From a virus (lineage: Duplodnaviria; Caudoviricetes): a stretch of DNA of 60,370 bases. Positions within the stretch are counted from its first letter, which is position 1; each line of letters starts with the position of its first letter. The notes below the pieces were generated by a model. That model did not search any database, had not been told where the DNA came from, and worked only from the letters and a program-made list of their open reading frames with translations. The translations under genes and the position numbers were made by a program. Location of the stretch: positions 1-60,370 of IMG/VR virus record IMGVR_UViG_3300036805_000098. The stretch is one strand, 5' to 3'. This document shows, in pieces, positions 15,360 to 51,766 of the stretch.

Positions 15360-15360
15360 C

Positions 15361-34156: not shown

Positions 34157-36084
34157 GCAAGGGCCGGAGCAACACCAACGAGGAGTCGATCAAGATCAAG
34201 CGCACCCATCATCGGCCACTGACCGAGCGGGCGTTCCCGTACGTGCTGCCGTGGGGGCTCGGGTTCATCACCCTGCCCCTGGGGGAGTTCCTGGCCTGGC
34301 AGGCGTCGGGCCCGTTCATGACGATCATCGTCATGCTCTGCGCGGGCCTGCTGACCTGGACGACTTACGTCACCTGGGACCGGCGCCACGAGCACACCCG
34401 CAACGCGGCCACCGTGATCACGGCTGGGTTCTCGGGATGGCTGGTCGCCTGCACCGCGAGCAGCCCGGACAACCGGCCGATGCTGACCACGTGGGTGATC
34501 ATGTGGATCATGCTCTCGCTGATCTGGAACATCCGTCACGCGGGCATCAGCACCGAGAACAAGCACGACCAGCCGTCGGCTCGGGCCGAGTCGGTGTGGG
34601 CCCCGATCCGGGCGCTCAAGAAGTCCCGCACCAAGGACGTCCACACCACCCCGGACGGCGCCGTCCGCATCACCGTGCAGCACCCCGGCGGACAGGCGAC
34701 GACGGACGATGTCCGCGCCGCCCGGAAGAACATCGCCGGACGCCTCGCGGTGGACGAGTCGGCCGTGTCCGTCGGCAACGTCTTCGGCCGGGCGGACCAG
34801 TCGGTGGTCACTGTCCGGCCGGACAACCCCACCGGACACGTCGTCCGCTGGACCGGACCGTCCGCCCCTGGACAGTCCATCGCGGACAAGCCTGTCCGCC
34901 TCGGTGTCCGGGCGGACAGCTCGCCGCTGGCGTTCTGGCTCACGGGCGATGACGACACCTCGCGCCCGGCGCCGCACACGCTCTGGACCGGCATGACCGG
35001 CTCCGGCAAGACCGAGGCGTTCTGCGTCGCGGTGCTGGAGATGCGCAGCCGGATCGACTGCGTGCCGGTGGTCGCCGACCCGGTCAAGTTCATGCTCTCA
35101 TTCGGGGACATTGCGGACGCCTTCGCCATCGCGGCCGACGGCCCGGACCAGACCGCGCAGCTCATCCGGAACCTGCCGGAAACGCTGCGCTACCGGGCCT
35201 GGGTGCTGGGCAAGCTCGGGTACAAGCAGTGGGTTCCCGAGTGCTACACCAAGCACGGCATCCCGGTCGTCCCGGTGCACATCGAAGAGGCCGCGCAGGC
35301 TCTCGGCAGCAACGACGACTTCAAGATGTCGATCCAGACCGCCCGCGCGCTGGGCATGCCGATCTCCGCATCCATGCAGGTCGCGGTGTTCCGGAGCATG
35401 CCGCGTGAGGCCCGAGCCCAGTTCGGCAATTCGATCGCCTTCGGTGTCCGGGAGATGCAGGATGCCCGGTTCGCCCTCACGGACACAACGCTGAACGCGG
35501 GCGCCGACCCCACCAAGTGGGCCAACAACCACCCCGGCCGCTGCTATGCCGAGCTGGTGGGGACGCCCGAGGAGAAGTGGGCCGAGGAGTGCCGGGTCTA
35601 CAAGGTCACGCTTGACGAGAAGCGCGCCACGCTGGAGGCCACCCGGCCGCACTGGGCACAGATCGACCCCGGTACGGCCATGCGGCTGGGGGCCGGGATC
35701 GACCGGCCCGACGCCTCGGTACTGGCCGGGATCGGCAGCTCCAACGCCTACGCCGACCCGGACCCGTTCGAGGAGAACACCGACCCCGTCAAGCTCGGAA
35801 AGACGATCATCGACCTGTCCACCGAGGGCCGTCCGTCCAAGGAGGACGCCCGGGAAATGATCGGTGCCAAGATCGACGAGCTGGAGATGAGGGGTGCGGA
35901 AACGATCTCCATCACGGACTTCAACGACGTGATCCCGCTGCTCGGGCGGCACCGCACGTGGGTGTATCTGGAGCTTGACCGGCAGGCCGGTTCGGGTCGG
36001 CTGGAGAGGCTGCCGGGAGACCGGAGGGAGTACACGATCCGGCCCCGTGGGAGCAACGGCCACCTTGCCCCGGCGGGTGCATGA
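34153..36084 (+). CDS. traB: TraB-like FtsK/SpoIIIE conjugative DNA translocase
   Basis: N-terminal TM segments, GMTGSGKT Walker A, HIEEAA Walker B, ARALGM..SASMQ, C-terminal wHTH-like RHRTWVYLEL. Confidence 0.78.
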   Translation: MSKGRSNTNEESIKIKRTHHRPLTERAFPYVLPWGLGFITLPLGEFLAWQASGPFMTIIVMLCAGLLTWTTYVTWDRRHEHTRNAATVITAGFSGWLVACTASSPDNRPMLTTWVIMWIMLSLIWNIRHAGISTENKHDQPSARAESVWAPIRALKKSRTKDVHTTPDGAVRITVQHPGGQATTDDVRAARKNIAGRLAVDESAVSVGNVFGRADQSVVTVRPDNPTGHVVRWTGPSAPGQSIADKPVRLGVRADSSPLAFWLTGDDDTSRPAPHTLWTGMTGSGKTEAFCVAVLEMRSRIDCVPVVADPVKFMLSFGDIADAFAIAADGPDQTAQLIRNLPETLRYRAWVLGKLGYKQWVPECYTKHGIPVVPVHIEEAAQALGSNDDFKMSIQTARALGMPISASMQVAVFRSMPREARAQFGNSIAFGVREMQDARFALTDTTLNAGADPTKWANNHPGRCYAELVGTPEEKWAEECRVYKVTLDEKRATLEATRPHWAQIDPGTAMRLGAGIDRPDASVLAGIGSSNAYADPDPFEENTDPVKLGKTIIDLSTEGRPSKEDAREMIGAKIDELEMRGAETISITDFNDVIPLLGRHRTWVYLELDRQAGSGRLERLPGDRREYTIRPRGSNGHLAPAGA

Positions 36085-36090
36085 GAGGAG

Positions 36091-36145
36091 CTGTGAGGCC
36101 CCGTGTGAGGACCCTGTGATTGGGGCCGTGTGAGCGGCCCTGACC
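36091..36145. repeat. short TGTGA(G) direct repeats downstream of traB, candidate clt locus
   Basis: CTGTGAGG, GTGTGAGG, CTGTGATT, GTGTGAGC within about 45 bp. Confidence 0.45.
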
Positions 36146-36234
36146 ATAGGTATTCGCGTTCAGTTCACAAGATCGAAAAGGGTCTCCTGTGTCACACGGC
36201 AGAGGGCGCCCGGGAGCGGAGAAGGAGAGCGGAG

Positions 36235-36666
36235 ATGAGCACTGGATTCCCGGCGCCCGAGGGCGACCGGCAGAGGATGGCCGAGCTGGCCGAGTACGTC
36301 CGGGGAGAGATCGTTTCGCGCGGCGGTGATCTTGGCCAGACCAAGATCGAACTTCACTACCACGCGGCCCCGGTGAAGATCGACACGGCGCCGGTCGACG
36401 CCTCGGCCGGAGACGCCGTCCTGGCGAAGTACACGCCGTACTTCATCGTCCTTCTCGGGGGCGTGGTCATCCTCGCGTGCGTAGGCGTGGTGACGGTTCT
36501 CCTGCTGCCCGCCCTGCTCACGATGGTGACCATGATCGCGGTGGTGATGGGCGGCTTCGCCGTGATGTCCATCGCGGTCGCCGCCTCGGTCAAGAGCCTG
36601 AAGCAGTCGGCGAGTGACCGGGACGTGGTCCGGCAGGCGGTGAAGGGTGGCCGTCGGCGCCGCTGA
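36235..36666 (+). CDS. SpdD-like membrane protein
   Basis: Two long TM segments, basic C-terminus, follows traB. Confidence 0.5.
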   Translation: MSTGFPAPEGDRQRMAELAEYVRGEIVSRGGDLGQTKIELHYHAAPVKIDTAPVDASAGDAVLAKYTPYFIVLLGGVVILACVGVVTVLLLPALLTMVTMIAVVMGGFAVMSIAVAASVKSLKQSASDRDVVRQAVKGGRRRR

Positions 36667-36699
36667 AGCCTGGTTTTGTAACGACTAGATAACGGAATC

Positions 36700-36722
36700 G
36701 GCCCCCTCGGGGGCCTTTTTTC
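36700..36722 (+). terminator. rho-independent terminator
   Basis: GGCCCCC-TC-GGGGGCC followed by a T run. Confidence 0.85.
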
Positions 36723-36779
36723 ATGATCAGATTACCTTAACTTTACCAAGTATTTCTATCGCCCCAGGTCAGAGCCCTG

Positions 36780-36830
36780 CCTAAAGTTTGCGATCTTATC
36801 CCATGGGGCGTACCTTTGGGGTAGTTCGAA
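36780..36830 (+). promoter_or_regulatory. variant of the repeated early-like promoter
   Basis: CTAAA...TACCTTTGGGGTAGTTC resembles the TACTTTTGGGGAAGTTC family. Confidence 0.55.
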
Positions 36831-37175
36831 AGCACGGCGGGGCCAAGCGGTAAGGCCCTCGGGAAACCACCGGGAACCCGGTGAGGCCCAAACGGCGCAA
36901 GTCGCCACCGGAGACAGGGCACCGACCCTCCACAAGAAAACGGCAGGCGAGTTCAGCAGCGGAAACGCTGCCTGGGGACGGGCCTTGATCAGCCGAGGAC
37001 ATACGGCACTGACTGATCACTGCGAGCACACATCCAGGCGGGGTAAGCGCGAGGGGCGAACCGACGGCACAGACGACCCAACGGAGCCAACCGGCGGTGC
37101 CCCTAGGCGCCCCTGATGGGACTTAGCCCGGAGGGTCGGGAGCACGACCCGCACGACACAGCACGTAAGTAGACA

Positions 37176-37276
37176 GCCGAAACACCCGGCCGGACGGTTC
37201 GCTCGTACCTCTAAACGATGCATAACCGACCGGGTGTCGGCGGGGATGGCCTCCCCGCCCTGACGAGGCAGGCCAC
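37176..37276 (+). ncRNA. type II hammerhead ribozyme 1 (extended stem III)
   Basis: GCC-GAAA-CACCCGG...CCGGGTG-TC-GGCGGGG-ATGGCCT-CCCCGCC-CTGACGA-GGC-AGGCCA; predicted cleavage after 37238. Confidence 0.9.
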
Positions 37277-37294
37277 ACGGACTTAGGAGCCGAC

Positions 37295-37555
37295 ATGCCG
37301 ACCTACACGATCAAGTACAACGCAGGCACGAACCACATCGAGGGTGTCGCCATCCGCACCGAGAGCACCGGGACCGAGAGCGGCGGCGTTGTCGCCGACT
37401 ACTCGCTGAGCGCCTGCGGGGCACTGACCCGGGGCCGGTTCGCCACGGGCCGGAGCTTCACCGACCTGACCGAGGCGCTGCGGATCGCCCGCCTCGGCCG
37501 CCGCAAGGTGTGCCGCACCTGCGAGAAGGCCGCACTCGCCGAGATCGAGAGCTGA
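37295..37555 (+). CDS. hypothetical protein, ribozyme-flanked
   Basis: AGGAG RBS, CRTC. Confidence 0.75.
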   Translation: MPTYTIKYNAGTNHIEGVAIRTESTGTESGGVVADYSLSACGALTRGRFATGRSFTDLTEALRIARLGRRKVCRTCEKAALAEIES

Positions 37556-37557
37556 GA

Positions 37558-37626
37558 GCCGAAACGGCGCCCTCCGGGGCGCCGTCGGCGGGGGCTGGCC
37601 GCCCCGTCCTGACGATGGCAGGCCAC
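37558..37626 (+). ncRNA. type II hammerhead ribozyme 2
   Basis: Full core GAAA / GTC / CTGACGA(T) with stems I-III; predicted cleavage after 37586. Confidence 0.85.
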
Positions 37627-37645
37627 ACGGACATAGGAGCCGATC

Positions 37646-37864
37646 ATGTCGATGACCCGCAAGCACTTCGTCGCCTTCGCCCAGATCATCGCGGCCGAGG
37701 TCGCCGAGGCGAACGAACTCACCCCGGTCCGCCGGAACGCCGCGCTGCGGACGCTGCGCAGCACCGCTCGGGCGATGGCCCGGGAGTTCGCCTACGACAA
37801 CCGGAACTTCGACCGGGCGCGGTTCATGGACGCGTGCGGACTCGGGGACCCCAACGGCAACTGA
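37646..37864 (+). CDS. hypothetical protein, ribozyme-flanked
   Basis: MTRKHFVAFA...DNRNFDRARFMDAC; AGGAG RBS. Confidence 0.75.
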   Translation: MSMTRKHFVAFAQIIAAEVAEANELTPVRRNAALRTLRSTARAMAREFAYDNRNFDRARFMDACGLGDPNGN

Positions 37865-37870
37865 TCAACA

Positions 37871-37939
37871 GCCGAAACGGCGTCCTCCGGGGCGCCGTCG
37901 GCGGGGGCTGGCCGCCCCGTCCTGACGATGGCAGGCCAC
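37871..37939 (+). ncRNA. type II hammerhead ribozyme 3
   Basis: Same core; predicted cleavage after 37899. Confidence 0.85.
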
Positions 37940-37958
37940 ACGGACATAGGAGCCGATC

Positions 37959-38135
37959 ATGCCGTATGGGACCCTCTGCCCCAAGTGCGGGCACCCGGAG
38001 ACCGACTACAACAACAGCGACCCCGAGCAGTGCGGCGGCTGCCGCAACCGGGCGTTCCGCGCTTCACACGGGGGCGTCGACCGGGTGACCGACTTCCTGT
38101 TCCCGGGACTCAAGAACCTCTATCCGACCGACTGA
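37959..38135 (+). CDS. 58-aa Zn-ribbon-like protein, ribozyme-flanked (absent from the ORF track)
   Basis: MPYGTLCPKCGH...QCGGCRN...PTD stop; AGGAG RBS. Confidence 0.7.
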   Translation: MPYGTLCPKCGHPETDYNNSDPEQCGGCRNRAFRASHGGVDRVTDFLFPGLKNLYPTD

Positions 38136-38200
38136 GCCGAAACGGCGCCCCGGCGCCGTCGGCGGGGGCTGGCCGCCCCGTCCTGATGATGGCAGGCCAC
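38136..38200 (+). ncRNA. type II hammerhead ribozyme 4
   Basis: CTGATGA(T) core, shortened stem III; predicted cleavage after 38160. Confidence 0.85.
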
Positions 38201-38218
38201 ACGGACATAGGAGCCGAC

Positions 38219-38398
38219 ATGATCGTTACCCCCGACATGATCGAAGCGCTGCGGACTCTCCGGCTCGCAAGCCGGACGGGTCTCGGCCTGGACGGTGCGG
38301 CTCGGGAGGCGTTTGACACCTTGGACAACCAGGGAGCATTCGCCGAGATCGACATCACCACCGGATACGAGATCTTCAGCGACGAGGATTTTCAGTGA
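38219..38398 (+). CDS. hypothetical protein
   Basis: AGGAG RBS after ribozyme 4. Confidence 0.65.
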   Translation: MIVTPDMIEALRTLRLASRTGLGLDGAAREAFDTLDNQGAFAEIDITTGYEIFSDEDFQ

Positions 38399-38700
38399 CG
38401 GTACCGACCCTCTACCACGGGACGGCCGAGGCGTTCGCCCCGGGCGACACCGTCGACCCCTCGTACGAGCTGGGAGCGCGGCGCGGCCGGGCGTTCGTCT
38501 ACGCGACGACCGACCCGGACGTTGCCCGCAACTACGCCCGGCACAAGGCGTGGGTCAAGGGGATGTTCGAGGAGGACGTGAGGGCCCGGACGTACGAGGT
38601 ACGGCCGACCGGCCCCGTGGAACCGGACGACACCGTAGACGGCCGTTTCGCCGCCTGGAGGACCCGGCGGCCGATGGAGGTCGTGCGGGAGCTTCCGTAA
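38395..38700 (+). CDS. Arr-like ADP-ribosyltransferase
   Basis: LYHGT...PGD...VYAT...YEVRPTG.VEPD...WRTRRPMEVV resembles the Arr family pattern. Confidence 0.65.
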   Translation: MTVPTLYHGTAEAFAPGDTVDPSYELGARRGRAFVYATTDPDVARNYARHKAWVKGMFEEDVRARTYEVRPTGPVEPDDTVDGRFAAWRTRRPMEVVRELP

Positions 38701-38768
38701 CGATCGGGACTCGATTTAACTAAATCGGTCGTCGGTCTCACCTTCTTCCCCTACTTTTGGGGAAGTTC
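38698..38768 (+). promoter_or_regulatory. repeated promoter/operator copy A
   Basis: TAACGATCGGGACTCGATTTAACTAAATCG...TACTTTTGGGGAAGTTC. Confidence 0.75.
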
Positions 38769-38859
38769 ACCAGGAAGGCGCCGGGACGAGGTCACTACGT
38801 TGACCGACCGGCAACGGGGTCGCAACCGGCGCCTTCCGCCCCGAGTCGAGGAGCACACC

Positions 38860-38985
38860 ATGGGAACGATCTTCGAATCCGCCAAGCGCGCCGTCAACCG
38901 GCTCGCGAAGACCTTCACCTGCCCCCGCTGCGGGGCGCCGCTCACCGCTGCGGGCCACTGCTCGCAGACGTGCGGCGGGATCTGA
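38860..38985 (+). CDS. 41-aa Zn-ribbon protein
   Basis: GAGGAG RBS, CPRC...CSQTC. Confidence 0.65.
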   Translation: MGTIFESAKRAVNRLAKTFTCPRCGAPLTAAGHCSQTCGGI

Positions 38986-38987
38986 GA

Positions 38988-39056
38988 GCCGAAACGGCGC
39001 CCTCCGGGGCGCCGTCGGCGGGGGCTGGCCGCCCCGTCCTGATGATGGCAGGCCAC
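38988..39056 (+). ncRNA. type II hammerhead ribozyme 5
   Basis: Same core; predicted cleavage after 39016. Confidence 0.85.
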
Positions 39057-39105
39057 ATGCAGACGCCGACCGACCGGGGCGGCGCCCAGCAGAAGGAGAA
39101 AGATC

Positions 39106-40251
39106 ATGCAGATCAACCTGCGGAACAGCAACCTCGACGGTCTCGTCAACGAGCTGACCGAGCAGCGCGACCGCAAGCAAGACCTGATCGTCCCCGCGCG
39201 GGACCTCTGGTCCCACGAGGGCCGGGTGTTCGTCCGGGGCGCCGGTGAGCCGGTGCTCACCGCCGACGGCGTCACCACGGGCAACCTGGAGTTCGCCCCG
39301 TCCGACGTCTACGACGAGGGAGCGGCGGCCAAGCTCGGGTTCCCCCGGGCGTACCTCCGCACGCTGCGGTCGTCCGGCCGGTCGGACCTGATCGACCAGA
39401 ACCTCAACGGCCTGCTCCACGGGAACAAGAACCTGGAGGTGCCCGGCGACACCCGGCGCTTCATGCTCCGGACGTTCAAGGGCCAGGACGGCGGGCTGGG
39501 CATGGCCCGCGCGCTGCTGTCCGACTCGTACCGCACCATCGACAACTGGGACGTCCTGATGGCGACCCTGGAGGGCATGCAGGCGGCCGGACTGGACGCG
39601 CACGTCGTGCGGCAGGCCGATCTCACCAACCGCCGGATGTACGTCCAGATCGTCGCCCCCGAGGTCCAGGCGCTCGCGCCCGAGCTGCTGAAGGACTACC
39701 GCTCGCCCTTCTCGGGCAACCGGGGCGCCGACAACCCGACCATGTTCGCCGGGTTCGTGGTCAGCAACAGCGAGACCGGCGGCGGGGCGTTCACGATCAC
39801 GCCGCGCCTGGAGATCCAGATCTGCACCAACGGCATGACGATCACGCAGGACGCCGTGAGCCGTCGGCACCTCGGCTCGAAGCTGGAAGAGGACGGCGTC
39901 GTCCGCTACAGCGACGAGACCCAGGCGAAGAACCTGGAGCTGATCAAGCTCCAGACCCGGGACGCGGTCCGGACCTTCCTGGACGTCGACTACATGAACA
40001 AGGTGATCACCCGGGTCACCGAGAAGGCGGGCCGCCCGGTCAGCCGCCCGGAGGAGATCGTCAAGACGGTCGTCAAGCGCGAGGCGTACACCAAGGAGGA
40101 CGCCGAGGGCATCCTCGCGCACTTCATCAAGGGCTCGGACATGACGCACGGCGGCGTCTTCCAGGCCATCACCAGCTACGCGCAGACCGTCGACAACGCG
40201 GACCGCGCCTACGCCATGGAGGCGGACGCCCTCGCGGCGGCCGGTCTCTGA
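39106..40251 (+). CDS. DUF932/DUF945-like phage protein
   Basis: RALLSDSY, SNSETG, ICTNG, RRHLG motifs. Confidence 0.7.
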   Translation: MQINLRNSNLDGLVNELTEQRDRKQDLIVPARDLWSHEGRVFVRGAGEPVLTADGVTTGNLEFAPSDVYDEGAAAKLGFPRAYLRTLRSSGRSDLIDQNLNGLLHGNKNLEVPGDTRRFMLRTFKGQDGGLGMARALLSDSYRTIDNWDVLMATLEGMQAAGLDAHVVRQADLTNRRMYVQIVAPEVQALAPELLKDYRSPFSGNRGADNPTMFAGFVVSNSETGGGAFTITPRLEIQICTNGMTITQDAVSRRHLGSKLEEDGVVRYSDETQAKNLELIKLQTRDAVRTFLDVDYMNKVITRVTEKAGRPVSRPEEIVKTVVKREAYTKEDAEGILAHFIKGSDMTHGGVFQAITSYAQTVDNADRAYAMEADALAAAGL

Positions 40252-40360
40252 GCACCGACTGATCCACCCGCACGATCTCCCGCCCCGGAGCGCACCGCCG
40301 GGGCGGGGGAGGGACCCTACAGAGTGCAGGCCCGGGGGCACACAGCAACCGGGCCGACCA

Positions 40361-40429
40361 GATCGCGCAGCTTGATGGCCGAGCGCCCCGACGGGGGAGG
40401 TGCGGGTTCGAATCCCGCCGCGATCACCA
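40361..40429 (+). ncRNA. tRNA-like RNA with truncated anticodon arm
   Basis: Acceptor GATCGCG/CGCGATC + ACCA, D arm, T arm GCGGG-TTCGAAT-CCCGC; anticodon arm only CCCC-GACG-GGGG. Confidence 0.75.
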
Positions 40430-40482
40430 CGGTTCCGGCAATCGCCGGGGCCGAGCCCCACCGAAGAGACAGGAACAAGATC

Positions 40483-40662
40483 ATGGCCGACTCCCCCGTC
40501 AAGCTCGTGAAGGTCTTCTTCAGCCTGAACCTCAAGGAGATGAAGGAGGAGTACATGGCGTCCGGCAACCCGGCCAAGACGCTCACCGACGCCGACAAGG
40601 CGGACTTCACCACGGCGCTCACGCCCGACCCGGCGACCGGCGTCCCCAGCTACACGTACTAG
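40483..40662 (+). CDS. hypothetical protein
   Basis: AGGA RBS, high GC3. Confidence 0.65.
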   Translation: MADSPVKLVKVFFSLNLKEMKEEYMASGNPAKTLTDADKADFTTALTPDPATGVPSYTY

Positions 40663-40667
40663 GAGGT

Positions 40668-40725
40668 CCGAGCGCAGCATGGCGGCCGACGCCCCTCGGG
40701 GCGCCGACCGGCCACGGGTGTTCGG
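40668..40725 (+). repeat. intergenic hairpin family 2, copy 1
   Basis: CGCAGCATGGCGGCCGACGCCCCTCGGGGCGCCGACCGGCCACGGG core. Confidence 0.85.
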
Positions 40726-40750
40726 CCCGGGAAAGATCAGAGAAACGATC

Positions 40751-40882
40751 ATGGGAACGAATTTGATCATGGCCGTGGCAACGACGCCCCCGCCGGGCAA
40801 CCCCGGCGAGCAGATGGGCGGTGGCGCGCTGCTCATGATCGTCATCCTGCTCATCATCAGTTCGGTCAAGGGAAAGAAGTGA
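40751..40882 (+). CDS. small membrane peptide
   Basis: Single hydrophobic helix followed by lysines. Confidence 0.55.
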   Translation: MGTNLIMAVATTPPPGNPGEQMGGGALLMIVILLIISSVKGKK

Positions 40883-41039
40883 CCATGAAACAGGCCGAGC
40901 GCTGGTGGTGGTACTGGAAGGCGCGCGAGCGTCAGCACTCCACTCCAGGGCCCCGCTACTGCGCCGAGTGCGGCGCGGCCAACGACCCCAACGCGACGTT
41001 CTGCGGAGCGTGCGGCAAGCGACTGTCAGGAGGCTGACC

Positions 41040-41375
41040 ATGCCTTGGGGCAAGGGTGAAGAGTTCAACTGGACGCGGGACGAGGCTCAGGCCGACATCC
41101 TGCAAGGCCGGTACGGCGAGGAGAACGACGACCGGGTGTGCGAGCTGGCCAACTTCGAGAACGGCTCGCGGAAGTTCTGGGCTGACAAGCTCCGGGCGCT
41201 GGTCGACGCCGACCCGGCCGACCGGCCCCGGTGGGCAGCGGCCATGCGGGAGGCGGCGGCTCTGCTGGACCCGTACGACGAGAAGGGTTCCGCTCAGGGC
41301 TTCGGCAGGACCGAGCCGGTGGGATCGGCCGGACTGCTGTACCTCGGCCCGGAGAGGGGAGGAGAGGGGAGCTGA
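41040..41375 (+). CDS. hypothetical protein
   Basis: AGGAGG RBS. Confidence 0.6.
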   Translation: MPWGKGEEFNWTRDEAQADILQGRYGEENDDRVCELANFENGSRKFWADKLRALVDADPADRPRWAAAMREAAALLDPYDEKGSAQGFGRTEPVGSAGLLYLGPERGGEGS

Positions 41376-41382
41376 GTACCGA

Positions 41383-41440
41383 CTGAACGCAGCATGGCGG
41401 CCGACGCCCCTCGGGGCGCCGACCGGCCACGGGTGTTCAG
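41383..41440 (+). repeat. intergenic hairpin family 2, copy 2
   Basis: Identical core, covarying outer stem CTGAACGC/GTGTTCAG. Confidence 0.85.
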
Positions 41441-41467
41441 CCCGACCACAGAACAGGAGAAACGATC

Positions 41468-42214
41468 ATGAACCGCAGGGCATCCCTCGTGGGAGCCGTC
41501 GCTCTCGCCGCCGGAATCGCCGTGGGCTGTTGCGCCGCACCCGCCTCGGCAGCCGCGTATCCGACTGTCGGCCCGGTCTCCGGGACCGGGTGGAACACGC
41601 AGACCGTCACCATCGACGGGACGGACTACCGGGTCAACGCGCTGCCGCACAACACGGAGTTCTACATCACGTACGGCGACACGGCGAGCATGAACACGCT
41701 CAAGCCTTACGCGCTGGTGTCGGCCCGAGCGCTCAACGCCATCCCGTCCGTCGTGGCGGCGGGTATCCACTTCAACTGCTACAGCACGGTGGAGAAGCTG
41801 ACCGAGCCTGCGGGCGCGGTCTACCCCGAGGCGAGCCCGGCGAAGTTCCACATCAACCTGACCCTCCGCAAGGGCTCGGGTTCGGGGATGTCCTGGACGA
41901 ACACCAGCGTCCTGAACAACCGGTTCGCGTGGGGTGGGGACATCTGGATCGACCCCGAATACTTCAACGTCCCGAACTGGTTCACCACGAACAAGGCGCT
42001 CAACACGGTGATCATCCACAACACCGTGTCCCACGAGATCGGCCACGCGATCGGCCTCAACCACCCGGCAGCCTTCAAGGTGCCCGCCGGGCGCGCGGTG
42101 CCGGTCATGACCCCGGGTCCCTCGGGCGGGTACCAGTCCACGGTCCACCAGGGCCTCTACACCGCGTACGACACCACGGGGATCAACAACCTCGTGGCCA
42201 ACGGCGCGCTCTGA
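41468..42214 (+). CDS. secreted metzincin-type zinc metalloprotease
   Basis: Signal peptide, HEIGHAIGLNH motif, downstream Met-turn (VM). Confidence 0.82.
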   Translation: MNRRASLVGAVALAAGIAVGCCAAPASAAAYPTVGPVSGTGWNTQTVTIDGTDYRVNALPHNTEFYITYGDTASMNTLKPYALVSARALNAIPSVVAAGIHFNCYSTVEKLTEPAGAVYPEASPAKFHINLTLRKGSGSGMSWTNTSVLNNRFAWGGDIWIDPEYFNVPNWFTTNKALNTVIIHNTVSHEIGHAIGLNHPAAFKVPAGRAVPVMTPGPSGGYQSTVHQGLYTAYDTTGINNLVANGAL

Positions 42215-42268
42215 GCGCAGCATGGCGGCCGACGCCCCTCGGGGCGCCGACCGGCCACGGGCGTTCAG
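42211..42268 (+). repeat. intergenic hairpin family 2, copy 3
   Basis: Identical core. Confidence 0.85.
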
Positions 42269-42282
42269 CTCGTCCCGGTCCG

Positions 42283-42353
42283 TAACGATCGGGATACGAT
42301 TTAGCTAATTCGGGCCCTCGGACGGCTCGTCACCCGTACTTTTGGGGGAGTTC
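42283..42353 (+). promoter_or_regulatory. repeated promoter/operator copy B
   Basis: TAACGATCGGGATACGATTTAGCTAATTCG...TACTTTTGGGGGAGTTC. Confidence 0.75.
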
Positions 42354-42387
42354 GAAACCAGCACGACCAGGAGAGCGGAGACAGGAA

Positions 42388-42798
42388 ATGATCAAGATCA
42401 CCAGCCCCGAGCACGCGGCCCGCCGGATGACCTACGCGGCCCGCAACCACTTCCCGGTGACGATCACCTACACCCGGCAGGACGGCACGCAGACCGTCCG
42501 GACGATCGAGGTGTACGAGTTCACCCGCAACAAGGCGGGCGACCGCTACGTCAAGGCGATGGTCAGGGCGAGCAAGCCCGAGGACAACCCGGCGGGCGAG
42601 CTGCGGAGCTTCCGGCTGGACCGGGTGAACTTCATCACGATCCACCGGAGCCACTTCAAGCTCACGGTCCCCGAGCCCAAGAGCGTGCAGCGCCCCGTCG
42701 TCCGCCCGGCGGACGAGATCCTGCGGGAGATGGCGGGCGCCGGTCGCACGGTCGGCCAGTACGCCATCCGCATCTCGGGTGGGGAGATCCTGCGATGA
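42388..42798 (+). CDS. WYL-domain protein
   Basis: ITYTRQDG..TVRTIE...RSFRLDRV. Confidence 0.75.
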   Translation: MIKITSPEHAARRMTYAARNHFPVTITYTRQDGTQTVRTIEVYEFTRNKAGDRYVKAMVRASKPEDNPAGELRSFRLDRVNFITIHRSHFKLTVPEPKSVQRPVVRPADEILREMAGAGRTVGQYAIRISGGEILR

Positions 42799-42952
42799 CC
42801 CTTCCTACCCCCACCAAGAAGCGCCCGGCGACCAAGCGTCGCCGGGCCTCGGCCCGCCCGACGGCGGCGCAGTTCTACGCCGTCCTCGTCTACCGGCTGA
42901 GCCTCGCCATCCTGGCGACGATTGTCATCCTCCACGTGAAAGGAAGCTGAGC

Positions 42953-43291
42953 ATGGAGTGGCCCAAGATCAAACCGTTCACCTTGAACGGCTGGAAGATC
43001 GTCCCGTGCGACGACTTCGGGCACGTCCCCGACGGAGGTGGGTTCTACCTCGCGTACGACGTCGTGAGCGGAGCCGAGCGCTACCACCACGAGGGGCTGG
43101 AGAGCGCCGTCGCCGCCGCTCAGATCGTCCCCCGGGAGCTGCCGGACCCGATCACCCCCGACCTGTCGGCCAAGCTCTACGCGTGCCTCTCCGAGGCGTG
43201 GGACGGGGGCGGCATCCAGGGCTCGGTCGACTACACCTTGCAGAACCTGGAACAGGTCGTCCGCGAGGCGATCGAAGAGGCCCGGCCGTGA
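42953..43291 (+). CDS. hypothetical protein
   Basis: AAAGGAAG RBS. Confidence 0.6.
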   Translation: MEWPKIKPFTLNGWKIVPCDDFGHVPDGGGFYLAYDVVSGAERYHHEGLESAVAAAQIVPRELPDPITPDLSAKLYACLSEAWDGGGIQGSVDYTLQNLEQVVREAIEEARP

Positions 43292-43524
43292 ACGCCCGAG
43301 GCATCCGCTCCGACTTGCTGCGCGCCGTCGTCAAGGCGGCCGTCAAGCAGAAGTTCACCTTGGACTGGGAGGGCAACCACCCGGCGCTCATCTGCCCGAC
43401 GTGCGGCCACCGCGAGGTGATCACCGCGACGGGTAAGCAGGCGCACCACGAGTCCCGTAACAAGATCTGCCGCTTGCGGCGCCACGGCTTCACCTGGAAG
43501 GGAATCGGAGGACAGCATGCGTAA
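43288..43524 (+). CDS. HicA-like small basic protein
   Basis: GNHPALIC...LRRHGF; weak resemblance only. Confidence 0.4.
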   Translation: MNARGIRSDLLRAVVKAAVKQKFTLDWEGNHPALICPTCGHREVITATGKQAHHESRNKICRLRRHGFTWKGIGGQHA

Positions 43525-44020
43525 CGGCGTGAGCCCCTACCGGCTGATGTCGGAGAACGGTCTCGACCTCGTCAAACTCGGCCCGAGGTACGGCCGTCCC
43601 CTGGACGACACGACCCTGCTCGGGATTGAGCACCGCACCCTCGGGGCGTACGTCGGCGTCCTGCTGGAACGGGGTGAGTTCCACGCGCTGGCCGAGTGGC
43701 TGGCGGCCGACGACGGCGGCGCCGACCCGGCCACGCTGCCGCCGTTCGAGCGGCCGATGGGTGAGGGCGGCGCCCCGCTCTACGTCCGCCGGGTCGACGT
43801 CACCCCCTCGCAGTTCCGGGTGATCGACCTCCAGACCGCGCTCATGATCACCCGGCGCCCCGGCTTCCGGGCGAAGTTCTCGGCCTGGTGGCTGGGCTCC
43901 GGCCGGTCGCGGGGAGCGGAGCTGAACGACATCTCCGTGAACCTGTTCACCGACTGGGTGACCGACGTCGACACCCACGGGTGGGCTGGATGGAGGTCGG
44001 GCCGTGCCGAAGAAGCGTAG
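43517..44020 (+). CDS. hypothetical protein
   Basis: GGAGG RBS. Confidence 0.6.
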   Translation: MRNGVSPYRLMSENGLDLVKLGPRYGRPLDDTTLLGIEHRTLGAYVGVLLERGEFHALAEWLAADDGGADPATLPPFERPMGEGGAPLYVRRVDVTPSQFRVIDLQTALMITRRPGFRAKFSAWWLGSGRSRGAELNDISVNLFTDWVTDVDTHGWAGWRSGRAEEA

Positions 44021-44258
44021 GGACTACCTGAGCAACCTCCGGCGCAAGACCCACACCGGGTGCACCTGGTGCGGGGCCGAGGTCGACCCCCCGGTCACCA
44101 CCGCCTCGTACTGCTCGGACGCCTGCGTACAGGCGGACCACGAGGGGATCGAGGACGAGCCGCCGGTGATCCCCCTCGCCTACAAGGACGAGGTGTACGC
44201 CTCGTGGGTGTGGGCGGGCCGACCGGCGGGAGGGCCCCGGTACCCGAAACGGGGATGA
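44004..44258 (+). CDS. Zn-finger-like hypothetical protein
   Basis: CTWC...YCSDAC. Confidence 0.6.
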   Translation: MPKKRRDYLSNLRRKTHTGCTWCGAEVDPPVTTASYCSDACVQADHEGIEDEPPVIPLAYKDEVYASWVWAGRPAGGPRYPKRG

Positions 44259-44329
44259 TAACGATCGGGACTCGATTTAGCTAAATCGAGTCTCGATCGT
44301 CCTCGTTTCACGTACTTTTGGGGAAGTTC
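44259..44329 (+). promoter_or_regulatory. repeated promoter/operator copy C
   Basis: 40-bp near-perfect palindrome centred on GATTTAGCTAAATC, then TACTTTTGGGGAAGTTC. Confidence 0.75.
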
Positions 44330-44359
44330 AACAACCGCCCACGGACCTAGGAGCCGATC

Positions 44360-44614
44360 ATGAACAGCATCGACAGCATCGCCACCCTCGCCGCTCAGAT
44401 CATCTGCCTCTCCCCCGAGGCCGTCGCCGAGGCGACGATGCTCCGGGGCGTCTACGCCAACGCGTCGACCAACGACGGCCGGTGCCGGGTGGCCGAGGTC
44501 GCCCGCAACCTGGCGGCGGTCCGGGCCAACTCGGACGAGGAGGGCTTCACGGCCGAGGCGTACATGGACATCGTCCTGCGGGACCTGCGCACCGCGCGGG
44601 GCGACTACCGCTGA
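44360..44614 (+). CDS. hypothetical protein
   Basis: Leader ACACGGACCTAGGAGCCGATCATG closely matches the ribozyme-cassette leaders. Confidence 0.7.
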   Translation: MNSIDSIATLAAQIICLSPEAVAEATMLRGVYANASTNDGRCRVAEVARNLAAVRANSDEEGFTAEAYMDIVLRDLRTARGDYR

Positions 44615-44618
44615 TCGA

Positions 44619-44682
44619 GCCGAAACGGCGCTCCGGCGCCGTCGGCGGGGAATGGCCGCCCCGTCCTGATGATGGCAGGCCG
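44619..44682 (+). ncRNA. type II hammerhead ribozyme 6
   Basis: GCC-GAAA-CGGCGC-TCCG-GCGCCG-TC-GGCGGGG-AATGGCCG-CCCCGTC-CTGATGA-T-GGC; predicted cleavage after 44643. Confidence 0.85.
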
Positions 44683-44701
44683 ACAGATCAGGAGAATGAT
44701 C

Positions 44702-45028
44702 ATGGACGTTCTGGTTCCCCGTCAGTTGATCGAGGACACGCTGGACAGCATCGGCCTGGACCCGGAGAGCGACCTGCGGGCCGACTACGGCGGCCGGAAC
44801 ATGTACGGCGCGACCTGCCTCGGCATCGTGTGCTCGCTGGCCGAGTATGGCGCCTTCCTCGTGGAGCTGTCGCACGCCTACTCCGAGAACGAGGACATGG
44901 AGTCCGACTTCGCGCAGGACTTCGCCCAGCGGGCCCGCTCGGACAGCATGGGCCGAGGCGAGATCTTCTACTTCCCGGGCGTCAAGCTCGAAGCCGAGGA
45001 CGACGACTCGGCCGACGTGGAAGACTGA
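44702..45028 (+). CDS. acidic hypothetical protein
   Basis: YGGRNMYGATCLGI...DSMG...YFPG; AGGAG RBS. Confidence 0.7.
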   Translation: MDVLVPRQLIEDTLDSIGLDPESDLRADYGGRNMYGATCLGIVCSLAEYGAFLVELSHAYSENEDMESDFAQDFAQRARSDSMGRGEIFYFPGVKLEAEDDDSADVED

Positions 45029-45108
45029 GCCTCATACGGCGTCGCAGGGCGGGCCCGCCTTCAGCCACAGCGCACCACCCACCGGAAGCGACCTCTCCGG
45101 TGGTCCCC

Positions 45109-45179
45109 GCTCCCATGGGGTAATGGATGCCCGGCGGCTTCTCAAGCCGCAGATGCCGGATCGTGACCGGCTGGGAGCA
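45109..45179 (+). tRNA. tRNA-Glu(CUC)-like with atypical T loop
   Basis: Complete cloverleaf, anticodon loop TT-CTC-AA, T loop ATCGTGA. Confidence 0.7.
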
Positions 45180-45297
45180 CGGCGGGTGACCGAGGGAACC
45201 CTTACCCCTCGGCAGGAGAGGCCAACTCCGGTGGTGAACGCTTCGCGAGAAGCCCCGGAGAAAGATCTCCTGAGTCGTAGTAGCGGCCCCCGCGCTT

Positions 45298-45370
45298 AGG
45301 TCCGTAGTCCAACTGGAAGGGCGCCCGCCTCCAAAGCGGGACGATGTCGGTTCGAGCCCGGCCGGACCTG
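45298..45370 (+). tRNA. tRNA-Trp(CCA)
   Basis: Cloverleaf, CT-CCA-AA, GGTTCGAGCCC. Confidence 0.88.
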
Positions 45371-45412
45371 CTCAAAGATCACCCAGCAAGATCAGGAACG
45401 CGAGACAGGAGA

Positions 45413-46054
45413 ATGACCATGACGTCGACCTTCGACCGAATGACGGTCACCGTCCCCGAGGGCGAGTTGGAGGGGCTGTCCGTCCAGCGCTTCACGTTCG
45501 ACCCGCAGAGCATCGCGGGCGTCCGGGCGAGGATGTCCGGCCGGTCCATCCCGGCGGGTACGTACACCCGGCTGGTGACCCGGGACACGTTCTGGATGAG
45601 CGACACCCCGGCCGAGAAGCGCGACCACGCGGAGGCGGTCTTCCAGATCTCCAACCTCGGGGCGCGCCGGGTGCTGATCAACGGCCTCGGTCTCGGAATG
45701 GTGCTGGCGGCGGCGCTCAGCTTCGACCACGTCGAGCACGTGGATGTCGTCGAGCGGGACGCCCGCGTGATCAAACTCGTGGGCCCGCACTACACCACCG
45801 ACCCCCGGGTGAACATCGTGCACGGCGACGCGTACGAGGTGGCCCGTGGGTGGCCCGCCGGTACCCGGTGGGACGTCGGCTGGTCGGACATCTGGCCGGA
45901 GCTGAACCCCGACGACCTCGCCGACCATGCCCGGCTGAGCCGGAGCTACGGGCGCCGGTGCACCTGGCACGGCTGCTGGGCTCACGACCTGCTGCTCCGG
46001 CGCGCTGCTCAGGAGCGTCGCGAGATCAAGCGCTATGAGGAGTGGATGTCATGA
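45413..46054 (+). CDS. SAM-dependent methyltransferase (spermidine synthase-like fold)
   Basis: WMSDT, VLINGLGLG, VVERD, GDAY, DIW. Confidence 0.75.
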   Translation: MTMTSTFDRMTVTVPEGELEGLSVQRFTFDPQSIAGVRARMSGRSIPAGTYTRLVTRDTFWMSDTPAEKRDHAEAVFQISNLGARRVLINGLGLGMVLAAALSFDHVEHVDVVERDARVIKLVGPHYTTDPRVNIVHGDAYEVARGWPAGTRWDVGWSDIWPELNPDDLADHARLSRSYGRRCTWHGCWAHDLLLRRAAQERREIKRYEEWMS

Positions 46055-47429: not shown

Positions 47430-48011
47430 ATGGGCACCCCGAACCCGCCCCCGGTGCGGCGCCTGTCCGGCCGTGATCGCGAAGTGCTCTGGTTGATGTC
47501 GCAGGGCATGACGTACTCCACCGTGGGCCGCAGGCTCGGGATGACCGAACCAGGAGCGAAGTCGGCGGCCCGCCGGGCGATGCTGAAGCTCGGGGCGGTC
47601 AACATCGTGCAGGCGGTCGCAGTGGCCCTCCTTGAGGGTGAGATCGGCCGCTGGCAGGGGTGCGGTACCTTCGCCACCTACCAGCGCCACCGCCGCCTGT
47701 ACCAGACCGCCGATCCCGCCTGTCTGGTCGGCAAGGCCGCGCACGACCGGGCGCAGCGCGCCGGGCAGGCGTGGGACTCCGACACCCTGCCGCTCGCGGT
47801 GCGCCGGGACCAGTGGTACGAGCGCGCCGACAGCGGCAAGACGATCCGGATCACGGGAGTGGACCTGGAGGCCATGCGGGTCGACGCGGTCGACGTCTAC
47901 ACCAACCGGCCGACCCGGGTCCTGATCAAGTACCTGCACCAGAGCCGCTACACCAAGACCGGCGTCCGCCGCCGGTACGAGTATGTGCGAGTCCAGGAGA
48001 ACGGAGAATGA
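47430..48011 (+). CDS. LuxR-type HTH protein
   Basis: LSGRDREVLWLMSQGMTYSTVGRRLGM...KLGA. Confidence 0.75.
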   Translation: MGTPNPPPVRRLSGRDREVLWLMSQGMTYSTVGRRLGMTEPGAKSAARRAMLKLGAVNIVQAVAVALLEGEIGRWQGCGTFATYQRHRRLYQTADPACLVGKAAHDRAQRAGQAWDSDTLPLAVRRDQWYERADSGKTIRITGVDLEAMRVDAVDVYTNRPTRVLIKYLHQSRYTKTGVRRRYEYVRVQENGE

Positions 48012-49323: not shown

Positions 49324-49593
49324 ATGAAGCGAAAGATCCACGCGGTCAACATCACCGTCTACGTCGAGCAGGAGGGCCGCCCGGCCCTGCCGACCCGACA
49401 GGAGATCACCGATGGCCTGATCGCGTCCCTCGCCGGGGACCCGGTCGACGTCCAGTACGGCGCCGACTCGTACGGCGCTCCGCTCACCCAGACGGCGAAG
49501 ATCGTCGGCGTCTACTCCAAGCTCTCCGGCGTCCCGTCCAACCAGAAGGGTCCGGACCTCTCCGAGCTGCGCGCCACCCCGCGCTCCGAGTGA
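49324..49593 (+). CDS. hypothetical protein
   Basis: High-GC3 ORF between tRNAs. Confidence 0.6.
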   Translation: MKRKIHAVNITVYVEQEGRPALPTRQEITDGLIASLAGDPVDVQYGADSYGAPLTQTAKIVGVYSKLSGVPSNQKGPDLSELRATPRSE

Positions 49594-49629
49594 TACCCCC
49601 GGCGCCGTCCCTCGGGGCGGCGCCCTCCC

Positions 49630-49702
49630 GCCCCGGTAGCTCATCAGGTAGAGCGGCTGCCTCGTAAGCAGCAGGCGACAGGTTCAAGTCCTGTCCGGGG
49701 CT
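49630..49702 (+). tRNA. tRNA-Thr(CGT)
   Basis: Cloverleaf, CT-CGT-AA. Confidence 0.9.
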
Positions 49703-50756: not shown

Positions 50757-51173
50757 ATGGAACTCACCGACAAGACCCCGGCGCAGCTCGCGCAGCTCGC
50801 CCTCGAAGGGATCGAGCAGGACCAGGAAGCGTTCCGCATGAACACGTGGATCTCGTTCCCCGAGGTCGGCCCGCAGGCGGTCGAATACGGCAGCCCGGAG
50901 TGGTACGCGCAGACGCTCAAGGCAGCCGACAACCCGGCCGAGTGCGGCACGACGCTCTGCGCGGCCGGGTGGATCGTCCACGTGGCCGGGTACGGCATGG
51001 ACACCAACGACAACGTCCTGGACAGGGAGGGCAACGTCGTCGGCTGGACGGGTGACTTCGCCGAGAGGCTGCTGAAGCTCACCCACGACCAGGCGTGGCG
51101 GCTGTTCTACGCGGCCCGCGAGGAAGGCGCCCTGGACATGCTCCGGCGCCTCGCCAGCGGCAAGAAGATCTGA
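50757..51173 (+). CDS. hypothetical protein
   Basis: CGTTLCAAGW motif; AGGAG RBS. Confidence 0.65.
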   Translation: MELTDKTPAQLAQLALEGIEQDQEAFRMNTWISFPEVGPQAVEYGSPEWYAQTLKAADNPAECGTTLCAAGWIVHVAGYGMDTNDNVLDREGNVVGWTGDFAERLLKLTHDQAWRLFYAAREEGALDMLRRLASGKKI

Positions 51174-51274: not shown

Positions 51275-51766
51275 ATGGAAAGCGTATGGACTGCTCTGCG
51301 TACCGACTGGTGGGACCGGGGCGCGTGTGTCGTCGGCAAGGCCAACGCGGACGAGTTCTCCCCCGTGGTCGAGAGCGAAGCCGGGTTGGAGCGCGTCAGC
51401 CAGCGCTGGTGCAACCACTGCCCGGTACGGAGCCAGTGCCTGAACAGCGCGTTGGTGAACAACGACTCGGGGTACCGGGGCGGCACCCACACCGCCCAGC
51501 GCAAGGCCCTGCGCCGGACCCGCAGCCGGGTCAAGTGCCCGCTCTGCAAGGGTGCCAACCTGGTGTATACCGAGGAGCACGAGGTGTGCGTGAACTGCGG
51601 CGCCTCGTGGAAGATCGACAAGAAGCCGGAGCCCCCGGCCGAGGCGGTCGCCGAACTGGTGGCCGCGCCCGAGCCGAGCCGGGGCCACCCGGTGCCCGGC
51701 CGCCTCTCTCCGACGGCCAAGGTCAAGAACGTCCCGCTGACGGAAGAAGCGTCCGCATGCCTATGA
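51275..51766 (+). CDS. WhiB-like transcription factor with Zn ribbon
   Basis: WWDRGAC...CNHCPVRSQC...GYRGG. Confidence 0.72.
   Translation: MESVWTALRTDWWDRGACVVGKANADEFSPVVESEAGLERVSQRWCNHCPVRSQCLNSALVNNDSGYRGGTHTAQRKALRRTRSRVKCPLCKGANLVYTEEHEVCVNCGASWKIDKKPEPPAEAVAELVAAPEPSRGHPVPGRLSPTAKVKNVPLTEEASACL

Follow-up and report, generated by a model that had tools for sequence, protein, structure and literature searches.

Six pseudoknotted type II hammerhead ribozymes lie between the genes of the IMG/VR virus record IMGVR_UViG_3300036805_000098, in the same orientation as these genes. We analysed the whole record (60,370 bases, linear, estimated to be 73% complete), hereafter called the window, and consider it likely that the hammerheads are functional and cut transcripts in the spacers between cistrons, which would give the cistrons defined ends in the manner of an insulator. 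The array is real and correctly identified, but arrangements of this kind have been on record for phages and prophages since 2011. New here are unannotated arrays of 10-14 copies in five cultured Streptomyces phages, relatives of the window that are free of hammerheads, and an uncatalogued RNA at the same junctions.

Six hammerheads co-oriented with the genes

A cmscan search of the whole window with Rfam 15 at gathering thresholds (37 bits for Hammerhead_II, RF02276) returned exactly six matches to this family, all on the plus strand (42.2-57.0 bits, E 2.8e-5 to 3.8e-9) and each spanning positions 1-66 and thus the full 66-position model. No further hammerhead appeared on either strand of the window in an Rfam search at E<=1, and the RF02276 model had no match in 14 control genomes. 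Hammerheads had been proposed at these six places, together with the RNA ends that they would leave, from the letters of the DNA alone (hereafter the sequence-only reading). The Rfam matches bear out the places, and a count by hand put C17 at all six predicted ends. The six copies, HH1 to HH6, are:

37175-37277, plus strand: HH1, 42.2 bits, predicted cleavage after C37238
37557-37627, plus strand: HH2, 52.1 bits, predicted cleavage after C37586
37870-37940, plus strand: HH3, 52.5 bits, predicted cleavage after C37899
38135-38201, plus strand: HH4, 57.0 bits, predicted cleavage after C38160
38987-39057, plus strand: HH5, 54.8 bits, predicted cleavage after C39016
44618-44684, plus strand: HH6, 56.4 bits, predicted cleavage after C44643

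An independent parse of the copies found the catalytic core intact in all six (GAAA, A15.1-U16.1, C17, and CUGA(C/U)GA), with an open stem II (GCC/GGC), a stem I of 7-8 bp, and a stem III of 7-9 bp, which is the type II permutation. Loop I (UGGCC) forms a 5-bp pseudoknot with the 3' tail in every copy (GGCCA, or GGCCG in HH6), and N7 is C in HH1-HH3 and U in HH4-HH6. Core, topology, pseudoknot, and the choice of C or U at N7 are all as the sequence-only reading had given them. Its statement that stem III differs between copies yet always pairs holds for the pairing, which is found in all six; the stem itself is common to HH2-HH6 apart from loop length and one G-U pair, and only that of HH1 differs. 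An extra U follows A9 in HH2-HH6 and is absent from HH1. Compared with RF02276, this nucleotide between A9 and stem II is an insertion to the model, and HH1 stands apart by the 40-nt loop that caps its stem III; all window copies have the pseudoknot of the pseudoknot-containing hammerhead structure (Nat Commun 2024, PMC11300833).

The six elements are intercistronic. HH2, HH3, HH4, HH5, and HH6 start 2, 6, 0, 2, and 4 nt after a TGA stop codon, within the 0-6 nt claimed earlier, and stem II of HH4 begins immediately 3' of the TGA. A ribosome-binding site (RBS) follows all six, also as claimed, with RBS and ATG 18-19 nt past the pseudoknot, or 49 nt past it in the case of HH5. The predicted cleavage sites are spaced by 348, 313, 261, 856, and 5627 nt. 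The neighbouring plus-strand open reading frames (ORFs) have a G+C content at third codon positions (GC3) of 0.90-0.98, from which it follows that the ribozymes share the sense orientation of these genes.

Hammerhead arrays in cultured Streptomyces phages and covariation

A 93-nt query made of HH3 and the leader behind it matched 16 phage records, which come down to 12 distinct Streptomyces phages (three of them recorded twice) and one 28-nt match; no annotation lies under the matches in these records, except an RBS in two Salutena records. Five genomes of the subfamily Arquatrovirinae, scanned over their whole length with RF02276, contain these numbers of matches:

Marav: 14 matches
Salutena: 12 matches
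Alvy: 11 matches
Thestral: 11 matches
phiScoe1: 10 matches

All of these 58 matches, 48 of them above the cut-off, are on the strand of the small right-arm genes, and in the GenBank records of the five phages the hammerheads are unannotated, except for ribosome-binding sites in Salutena. The arrays resemble that of the window in ribozyme type, in their intercistronic position just upstream of an RBS, and in sharing the strand of the genes, and one Marav/Salutena copy is 81-82% identical to HH3 and its leader. They differ in copy number (10-14 per genome vs. six in the window) and in their genes, which are unrelated to those of the window: tblastn of 21 window proteins against the five arrays gave a single marginal match (E = 0.009, 40 amino acids). 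Co-transfer of genes together with their ribozymes from Arquatrovirinae was dropped as an explanation on account of this result. A further difference from the window is a doublet of hammerheads, back to back and 1-2 nt apart, with which these arrays begin on their upstream side (record coordinates):

Marav, 49555-49689: hammerhead doublet
Alvy, 51395-51528: hammerhead doublet
Thestral, 50999-51133: hammerhead doublet
phiScoe1, 49366-49497: hammerhead doublet

The upstream member of the doublet has U for C at position 17, and the pair would release an RNA of ~67 nt. A further Marav hammerhead (44159-44222) lies directly upstream of the Ocr-like anti-restriction gene 70 (43730-44143), echoing the association with ardA in Perreault et al. 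2011 (PMC3088659).

HH2-HH5 are 76-98% identical over 95 nt without gaps, and HH3 matches HH2 at 98% identity over 95 nt that include the leader and the start codon; with copies this similar, the window alone yields almost no independent covariation. The covariation set therefore draws on the six window copies and the 58 Arquatrovirinae matches (64 in all), of which 62 were parsed, giving 59 distinct sequences from six phages. Only two of the 64 matches lack an intact core, namely a Marav remnant that scores 19.7 bits and a copy in phiScoe1 in which U4 is replaced by C. Many pair types occur among the 59 distinct sequences at stem III positions 3-6 and at stem I positions 1 and 3-5; at stem III position 4, for example, the pairs are CG (22), GC (16), UA (16), AU (3), and UG (1), with one copy unpaired, and at stem I position 4 they are GC (29) and CG (29), again with one unpaired. 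Stem II flips between GCC/GGC and GGC/GCC, and compensatory changes are found in all three stems. The pseudoknot partners co-vary as well (UGGCC/GGCCA, GUGACG/CGUCAU, UGGGCA/UGCCCA, GGGU/ACCC), the pseudoknot reaching at least 4 bp in 49 of the 59 distinct copies, with a mean of 4.49 bp vs. 4.08 +/- 0.10 bp when the tails are permuted (observed value reached in 1 of 1000 permutations). Compensatory change in the stems and the pseudoknot around an invariant core argues for selection on the RNA fold beyond mere DNA identity, and we take this as good evidence for selection for the hammerhead fold. The one-nucleotide insert after A9 is present in 29 of the 62 parsed copies and thus belongs to the regular build of this group. 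Three weaker RF02276 matches (21.9-25.7 bits) occur in Streptomyces phage Wentworth; the one that was inspected comprises an entire hammerhead, has a stem II of 4 bp, and is immediately followed by an RBS.

Proposed processing of the transcripts and alternatives

Self-cleavage that splits multi-gene transcripts is the leading explanation for the array. On transcription of the plus strand, each ribozyme would fold and cut after its own C17. HH1 would remove the conserved leader of ~350-400 nt from the first cistron, HH2-HH4 would free three single-gene segments (348, 313, and 261 nt), and HH5 and HH6 would each part a promoter-proximal small ORF from the genes behind it. The upstream product would bear a 2',3'-cyclic phosphate at the end of its terminal, G+C-rich stem III hairpin, and the downstream product would carry a 5'-OH and be paired from its first nucleotide in the stem I hairpin, which in HH1-HH4 would be followed by a standard leader, the RBS, and the ATG at its constant distance of 18-19 nt past the pseudoknot. 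The net effect would be an insulator, i.e. cistron ends that are defined and independent of context, and cassettes with such ends would be easy to gain, lose, and swap. In RiboJ-type synthetic insulators, a self-cleaving ribozyme placed before the RBS removes variable upstream RNA and makes translation independent of context. RiboJ was engineered from a plant satellite RNA hammerhead and has neither a natural array nor a pseudoknot; HH1-HH4 with their shared leader would act in a similar way. The same-strand genes and a single upstream terminator-like site are compatible with one co-transcribed precursor, and four internal promoter-like motifs, described below, suggest several precursors.

Several observations weigh against this explanation. 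The minimum free energy (MFE) structure of the isolated window copies is the hammerhead fold in none of the six: in all but HH4, stem III is extended by pairing of GCCGA with UCGGC, HH4 adopts a different alternative fold, and the MFE z-scores are only -0.6 to -2.4. The competing stem III helix could slow cleavage. The hammerhead helices of HH2-HH6 lie 4.4-5.5 kcal/mol above the nested MFE, a cost that is about offset by the 5-bp pseudoknot, worth roughly -7.5 kcal/mol. HH2-HH5 are recent near-identical repeats, and their conservation within the window says little on function. Given the four internal promoter-like motifs, some cistron boundaries may come from transcription starts and not from cleavage, and the nearest relatives of the window do without hammerheads, which makes the ribozymes dispensable for this type of phage. 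A stabilising role of the 5'-OH is doubtful where RNase J is present, and actinomycetes have RNase J.

The preference of MFE folding for another structure, together with the two degenerate cases among the 64 Rfam matches (the Marav remnant and the phiScoe1 copy), would also be expected if the motifs were inactive relics or chance matches in G+C-rich palindromic spacers, serving perhaps as hairpins only. We regard this as very improbable in view of six matches at low E values that are confined to one strand and have no counterpart in the control genomes, a core that is intact in every window copy, and covariation across 59 distinct copies.

Real ribozymes might instead serve mainly to lower or time expression, if the 5'-OH exposed the products to 5'-to-3' decay as in glmS, with the cistrons uncoupled and distal genes expressed less or more briefly. 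In Bacillus subtilis, the 5'-OH left by glmS cleavage is attacked by RNase J1, and the product is degraded because this end is a substrate of the enzyme (PMC3328962, summarising Collins 2007). The glmS ribozyme is like the window hammerheads in that self-cleavage within a bacterial mRNA leaves a 5'-OH on the downstream coding fragment; unlike them, it depends on a metabolite and belongs to another ribozyme class, and its cleavage destabilises the message, a counter-example to the protection by 5'-OH ends that the sequence-only reading had assumed. The location of HH5 and HH6 right after a promoter-proximal small ORF would also be a good site for a valve on downstream expression. However, the 5' end would be paired in a G+C-rich stem I of 7-8 bp, which should hinder a 5' exonuclease that depends on single strands, and arrays of 10-14 ribozymes before nearly every small gene fit a general formatting of transcripts better than targeted repression. 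We thus consider decay as the main role of the ribozymes to be unlikely.

In another scenario, gene-length RNAs cut out by pairs of adjacent ribozymes would be joined into circular or spliced products, either by the reverse reaction or by an RtcB-type ligase. Termini with a 5'-OH and a 2',3'-cyclic phosphate are substrates of RtcB, and as stem II is GCC/GGC in all six copies, the two ends of the 261-348-nt segments could re-form a complete hammerhead. Spliced or circular products of such arrays were, however, sought in the experiments that Perreault et al. 2011 (PMC3088659) describe, with none found, and we hold this scenario to be highly improbable.

Source genome and modules of the region

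Judged by its sequence, the window is an uncultured high-GC soil actinophage (G+C ~68% throughout), since its similarities among deposited phages are to Streptomyces phages only and its DNA is present in three soil-metagenome DNA runs. The sequencing-run search found no RNA run among those containing the sequence, and a megablast search of 36500-45000 against deposited phages returned nothing beyond a 73-bp match to the Streptomyces phages Rooney and Wentworth. Among the PHROG matches of the window are genes of phage replication and of the tail:

10914-15377, minus strand: primase-polymerase
58379-60355, minus strand: tape-measure protein
plus strand: helicase, exonuclease, and ParB-like proteins
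elsewhere among the PHROG matches: glycosyltransferase and sigma-factor-like protein

The primase-polymerase, helicase, exonuclease, and tape-measure matches, along with the IMG/VR virus record, identify the DNA of the array as that of a phage, and, as in clustered phage arrays, several same-strand hammerheads flank single genes or short blocks in it. Their setting is a non-structural block on the plus strand with small, mostly uncharacterised genes, followed by tRNA genes. Besides the hammerheads, the region contains these features:

36130-36666, plus strand: ORF of 178 amino acids (aa), upstream of the terminator-like hairpin
36700-36721, plus strand: terminator-like hairpin, 6 G-C pairs and then a T-run, just past the 178-aa ORF
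36811-36827, plus strand: promoter-like motif TACYTTTGGGGNAGTTC, copy 1 of 4
36830-37174, plus strand: long untranslated leader, conserved in the two closest relatives (loci L012 and L013, see below)
37276-37297, plus strand: module of shared leader, RBS, and ATG (CACGGACNTAGGAGCCGA...ATG), first of five copies in the window
37295-37555, plus strand: 86-aa ORF, GC3 0.93, homologues in Streptomyces phages Wentworth, Dryad, Gibson, Rooney, and others
37646-37864, plus strand: 72-aa ORF, GC3 0.95, no homologue in the phage collection searched
37959-38135, plus strand: 58-aa ORF, cysteine-rich, GC3 0.90
38219-38398, plus strand: 59-aa ORF, overlapping the 101-aa ORF
38395-38700, plus strand: 101-aa ORF, Pfam Arr-ms PF12120 (33.5 bits vs. 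a cut-off of 25)
38698-38772, plus strand: repeat family D4, copy 1, composed of stop codon, CGATCGGGA, palindrome, and promoter-like motif
38773-38837, plus strand: structured element, a 12-bp outer helix around two small hairpins, before the 41-aa ORF
38860-38985, plus strand: 41-aa ORF with CxxC...CxxxC, GC3 0.90
39106-40251, plus strand: 381-aa ORF, phrog_1362, behind HH5
40668-40732, 41383-41447, and 42211-42275, plus strand: long imperfect G+C-rich hairpin (D3), copies 1-3
42283-42357, plus strand: D4 copy 2, palindrome and promoter-like motif at 42337
44259-44333, plus strand: D4 copy 3, perfect palindrome (44269-44292) and promoter-like motif at 44313
44360-44614, plus strand: 84-aa ORF, GC3 0.98, shared leader upstream without a hammerhead
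44702-45028, plus strand: 108-aa ORF, phrog_14658, followed by tRNA genes from 45109

The terminator-like hairpin at 36700-36721 would mark the end of the upstream unit, and the motif at 36811 is the likely start region of the transcript carrying HH1-HH4. The 17-nt TACYTTTGGGGNAGTTC has four copies, all on the plus strand (36811, 38752, 42337, and 44313), with 0 expected in 100 shuffles, and three of the four have an AT-rich palindrome upstream, directly after a stop codon (in D4 copy 1, the palindrome is at 38708-38727 and the motif at 38752-38768). A sigma-70 promoter scan of 36000-46000 found 0 sites, so that we call TACYTTTGGGGNAGTTC promoter-like for its position and repetition only. The units of palindrome and motif are probably promoter/operator units, and they perhaps serve a sigma-like protein that the phage itself encodes (47430-48011); the other loci that were compared have no copy of the motif. 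A region with promoter-like motifs at four places and with two further kinds of repeated RNA module at other junctions is probably more than a single operon, and the one early-like operon of the sequence-only reading is too simple a picture of it.

The long leader has no match in Rfam (36830-37175), and its core (~36910-36982, 73 nt) is ~86% identical to unannotated DNA of the Streptomyces phages Rooney and Wentworth; a structured RNA and a regulatory region are both conceivable for this leader. The short CACGGACNTAGGAGCCGA leader/RBS unit has five matches vs. 0.04 expected, four behind HH1-HH4 and one, at 44340 (44340-44357), that is free of a hammerhead, and because of this last copy ribozyme and leader are to be seen as separable modules. 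The shared leader might correspond to the 'start-associated sequences' of mycobacteriophages, an idea that was set aside; the literature search found no paper linking that term with hammerheads. The D3 hairpin is a third kind of intercistronic module, located in the hammerhead-free stretch. Its copies are 91-100% identical, with one compensatory change at the base of the helix, and each lies at or just past a stop codon, copies 1 and 2 preceding an RBS and start codon and copy 3 preceding the promoter-like unit at 42283. The structured element at 38773-38837 has an MFE of -43.8 kcal/mol (z -3.55, 0 of 200 shuffles as good).

PHROGs and Pfam had no match for the 86-, 72-, 58-, 59-, 41-, and 84-aa ORFs. 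PF12120 (Arr-ms) is the rifampin ADP-ribosyltransferase family, and the 101-aa ORF, which sits in the segment between HH4 and HH5, may encode a small phage ADP-ribosyltransferase. An Rfam tRNA match at 40361-40426 (42.4 bits) falls within a high-GC3 ORF (40324-40662), and ARAGORN makes no call there.

Hammerhead-free relatives and a three-way-junction RNA

The distribution of the hammerheads is patchy. The two closest relatives of the window are complete IMG/VR genomes of 88 and 85 kb, compared here through their loci L012 and L013 (the record of L013 is G002), with orthologues of the 381-aa protein that are 72% identical in L012 and 77% identical in L013. Neither complete genome has a Hammerhead_II match, and the 13-kb loci contain no Rfam family except tRNA, even at E<=0.1. 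The genes at 34153, 36130, and 39106, which flank the HH1-HH5 block, are syntenic in both relatives, and the small hammerhead-flanked genes of the window have no homologue in the two syntenic loci. The 84-aa gene and HH6 are likewise missing between the orthologues of their neighbours in L013, and in L012 the homologue of this gene sits elsewhere, upstream of the 381-aa gene.

Within 5.5 kb of its syntenic region, G002 carries seven same-strand copies of an element of ~45 nt (G002 63354-68831), at the following positions of L013:

5468-5530: three-way-junction RNA, copy 1
5898-5960: three-way-junction RNA, copy 2
7586-7648: three-way-junction RNA, copy 3
7892-7954: three-way-junction RNA, copy 4
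8697-8759: three-way-junction RNA, copy 5
9149-9211: three-way-junction RNA, copy 6
10917-10979: three-way-junction RNA, copy 7

The element has a compact three-way-junction fold with the invariant core ...ACGGACGUAGCCCGCGAAGGGC..., and neither the opposite strand nor a search with the reversed pattern as control gave any copy (0 each). A gene start follows shortly behind all seven copies, and in five cases a TAG stop immediately precedes the element. The RNA has no Rfam match at E<=0.1, and a scan for its exact core across IMG/VR found it only in the G002 contig itself; the window shows no enrichment of the related short motif GGGGTCGCAAC.

Two of the copies take the places of hammerheads. 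Copy 1 has the position of HH1 and directly follows a hairpin whose loop sequence is that of the HH1 stem III loop: ~27 nt of this loop (37198-37224) are conserved in L013 (~5427-5455), where they sit on a different hairpin stem. Copy 2 has the position of HH5 and lies upstream of a clearly homologous 5' untranslated region (UTR), the 49-nt 5' UTR after HH5 being homologous to that of the orthologous gene in L013. In outline, the window element at 38773-38837 resembles the three-way-junction module of G002 and may be a relative of it; some of its short motifs recur in an L012 element (~5290-5335) that precedes a gene.

The intercistronic RNAs might be interchangeable cassette adaptors, with the G002 RNA as a new ribozyme class or a processing or protection signal and with the module junctions as preferred places for gene swaps, a tentative idea that we rate as rather unlikely in this full form. 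The replacement of a hammerhead by an unrelated structured RNA at the same junction amounts to a natural swap experiment and makes the G002 RNA a candidate for a new processing element.

Cassette behaviour at hammerhead junctions

The hammerhead-leader units could also persist mainly as recombination joints or hitch-hikers of mobile cassettes, with cleavage secondary, as a junction sequence of 65-95 nt shared between sites would promote exchange and duplication of accessory genes. Such behaviour would agree with the near-identity of HH2-HH5 between genes that are unrelated, with a module ~80-82% identical to the Salutenavirus one in arrays whose genes share no significant protein similarity, and with the absence of the block from the two closest relatives. 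When the Arquatrovirinae arrays are compared by BLAST, 132 of 231 homology-block ends fall no more than 25 nt from a hammerhead vs. 33.6 expected from coverage, which gives weak support, as the control does not separate hammerheads from gene junctions generally and the variable stems alone can end BLAST blocks.

Synteny breaks are enriched at hammerhead junctions too. The 24 junctions between annotated Marav genes were compared with four phages (96 comparisons, 11 of them dropped because both genes were absent), and the 19.7-bit Marav remnant was counted as hammerhead-free. Synteny is kept in 14 of 41 comparisons at hammerhead junctions vs. 28 of 44 at hammerhead-free ones (Fisher p = 0.009), a contrast that is weakened by its single reference phage and by comparisons that are non-independent, Alvy and Thestral being close kin; the truncation of the phiScoe1 locus at one end acts in the opposite direction to the effect. 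This pattern fits a promotion of recombination by the shared ribozyme sequence, and it equally fits ribozyme junctions that tolerate insertions, combined with overlapping, translationally coupled gene pairs that travel together.

Compensatory change in all stems and the pseudoknot around an invariant core, which shows selection on the RNA fold, speaks against recombination joints as the main reason for the units to persist, and we find this quite improbable; it is moreover compatible with transcript cleavage in the cistron spacers and hence no true alternative to it. A part of the ribozymes in cassette exchange would then follow from the defined cistron ends that cleavage would create.

Known systems and biological meaning

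Perreault et al. 2011 (PLoS Comput Biol, PMC3088659) described the first natural type II hammerheads and the pseudoknot between loop I and the 3' tail, reported clustered hammerheads flanking single genes or short blocks in prophages, and proposed that long phage transcripts are processed to operon- or gene-length mRNAs. Three triple arrays cleaved in vitro and one in vivo in Escherichia coli (PMC3088659). The sequence-only reading knew of no description of the arrangement as a phage expression system, and in this it was wrong, because arrays, pseudoknot, and processing role are all present in that paper. The window shares with its arrays the type II topology, the pseudoknot, the common strand, the variable and mostly uncharacterised phage genes, and the proposed role. 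It differs in having six copies in an uncultured actinophage, where the test cases were triple arrays from Clostridium, Azorhizobium, and Agrobacterium prophages, and, as compared with the cases described there, in the fusion of four copies to a leader/RBS repeat and in the company of promoter-like repeats and two other RNA modules. 'Streptomyces' is absent from the main text of the paper, although its supplementary lists may include such phages.

For Desulfovibrio vulgaris, cyPhyRNA-seq showed three type II hammerheads in the vicinity of phage-like genes to be active in vivo (Olzog et al. 2021, PMC8782182), direct evidence for cleavage of such motifs within cells. They are like those of the window in type and phage-related context, and unlike them in being three dispersed or paired copies in a chromosome, without a dense array, and in a different phylum. 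A 2019 review (PMC6765202) still treats the role in mRNA processing as a suggestion for which additional work is needed. Our literature search found no paper joining hammerheads with Streptomyces phages, actinophages, Arquatrovirinae, or cluster BD, the sole exception being an unrelated citation in Kever et al. 2022. The binding of aminoglycosides to a hammerhead in vitro had raised the idea that aminoglycosides block Streptomyces phages via these ribozymes; it was dropped, as in Kever et al. 2022 all Streptomyces coelicolor phages were insensitive, lambda was sensitive, and the block lay before transcription.

Hammerheads ought to be included in the annotation of actinophage genomes. With their 10-14 hammerheads each, the cultured Streptomyces phages, which form plaques, are a tractable system for the question of whether these ribozymes stabilise, insulate, or destabilise phage messages.

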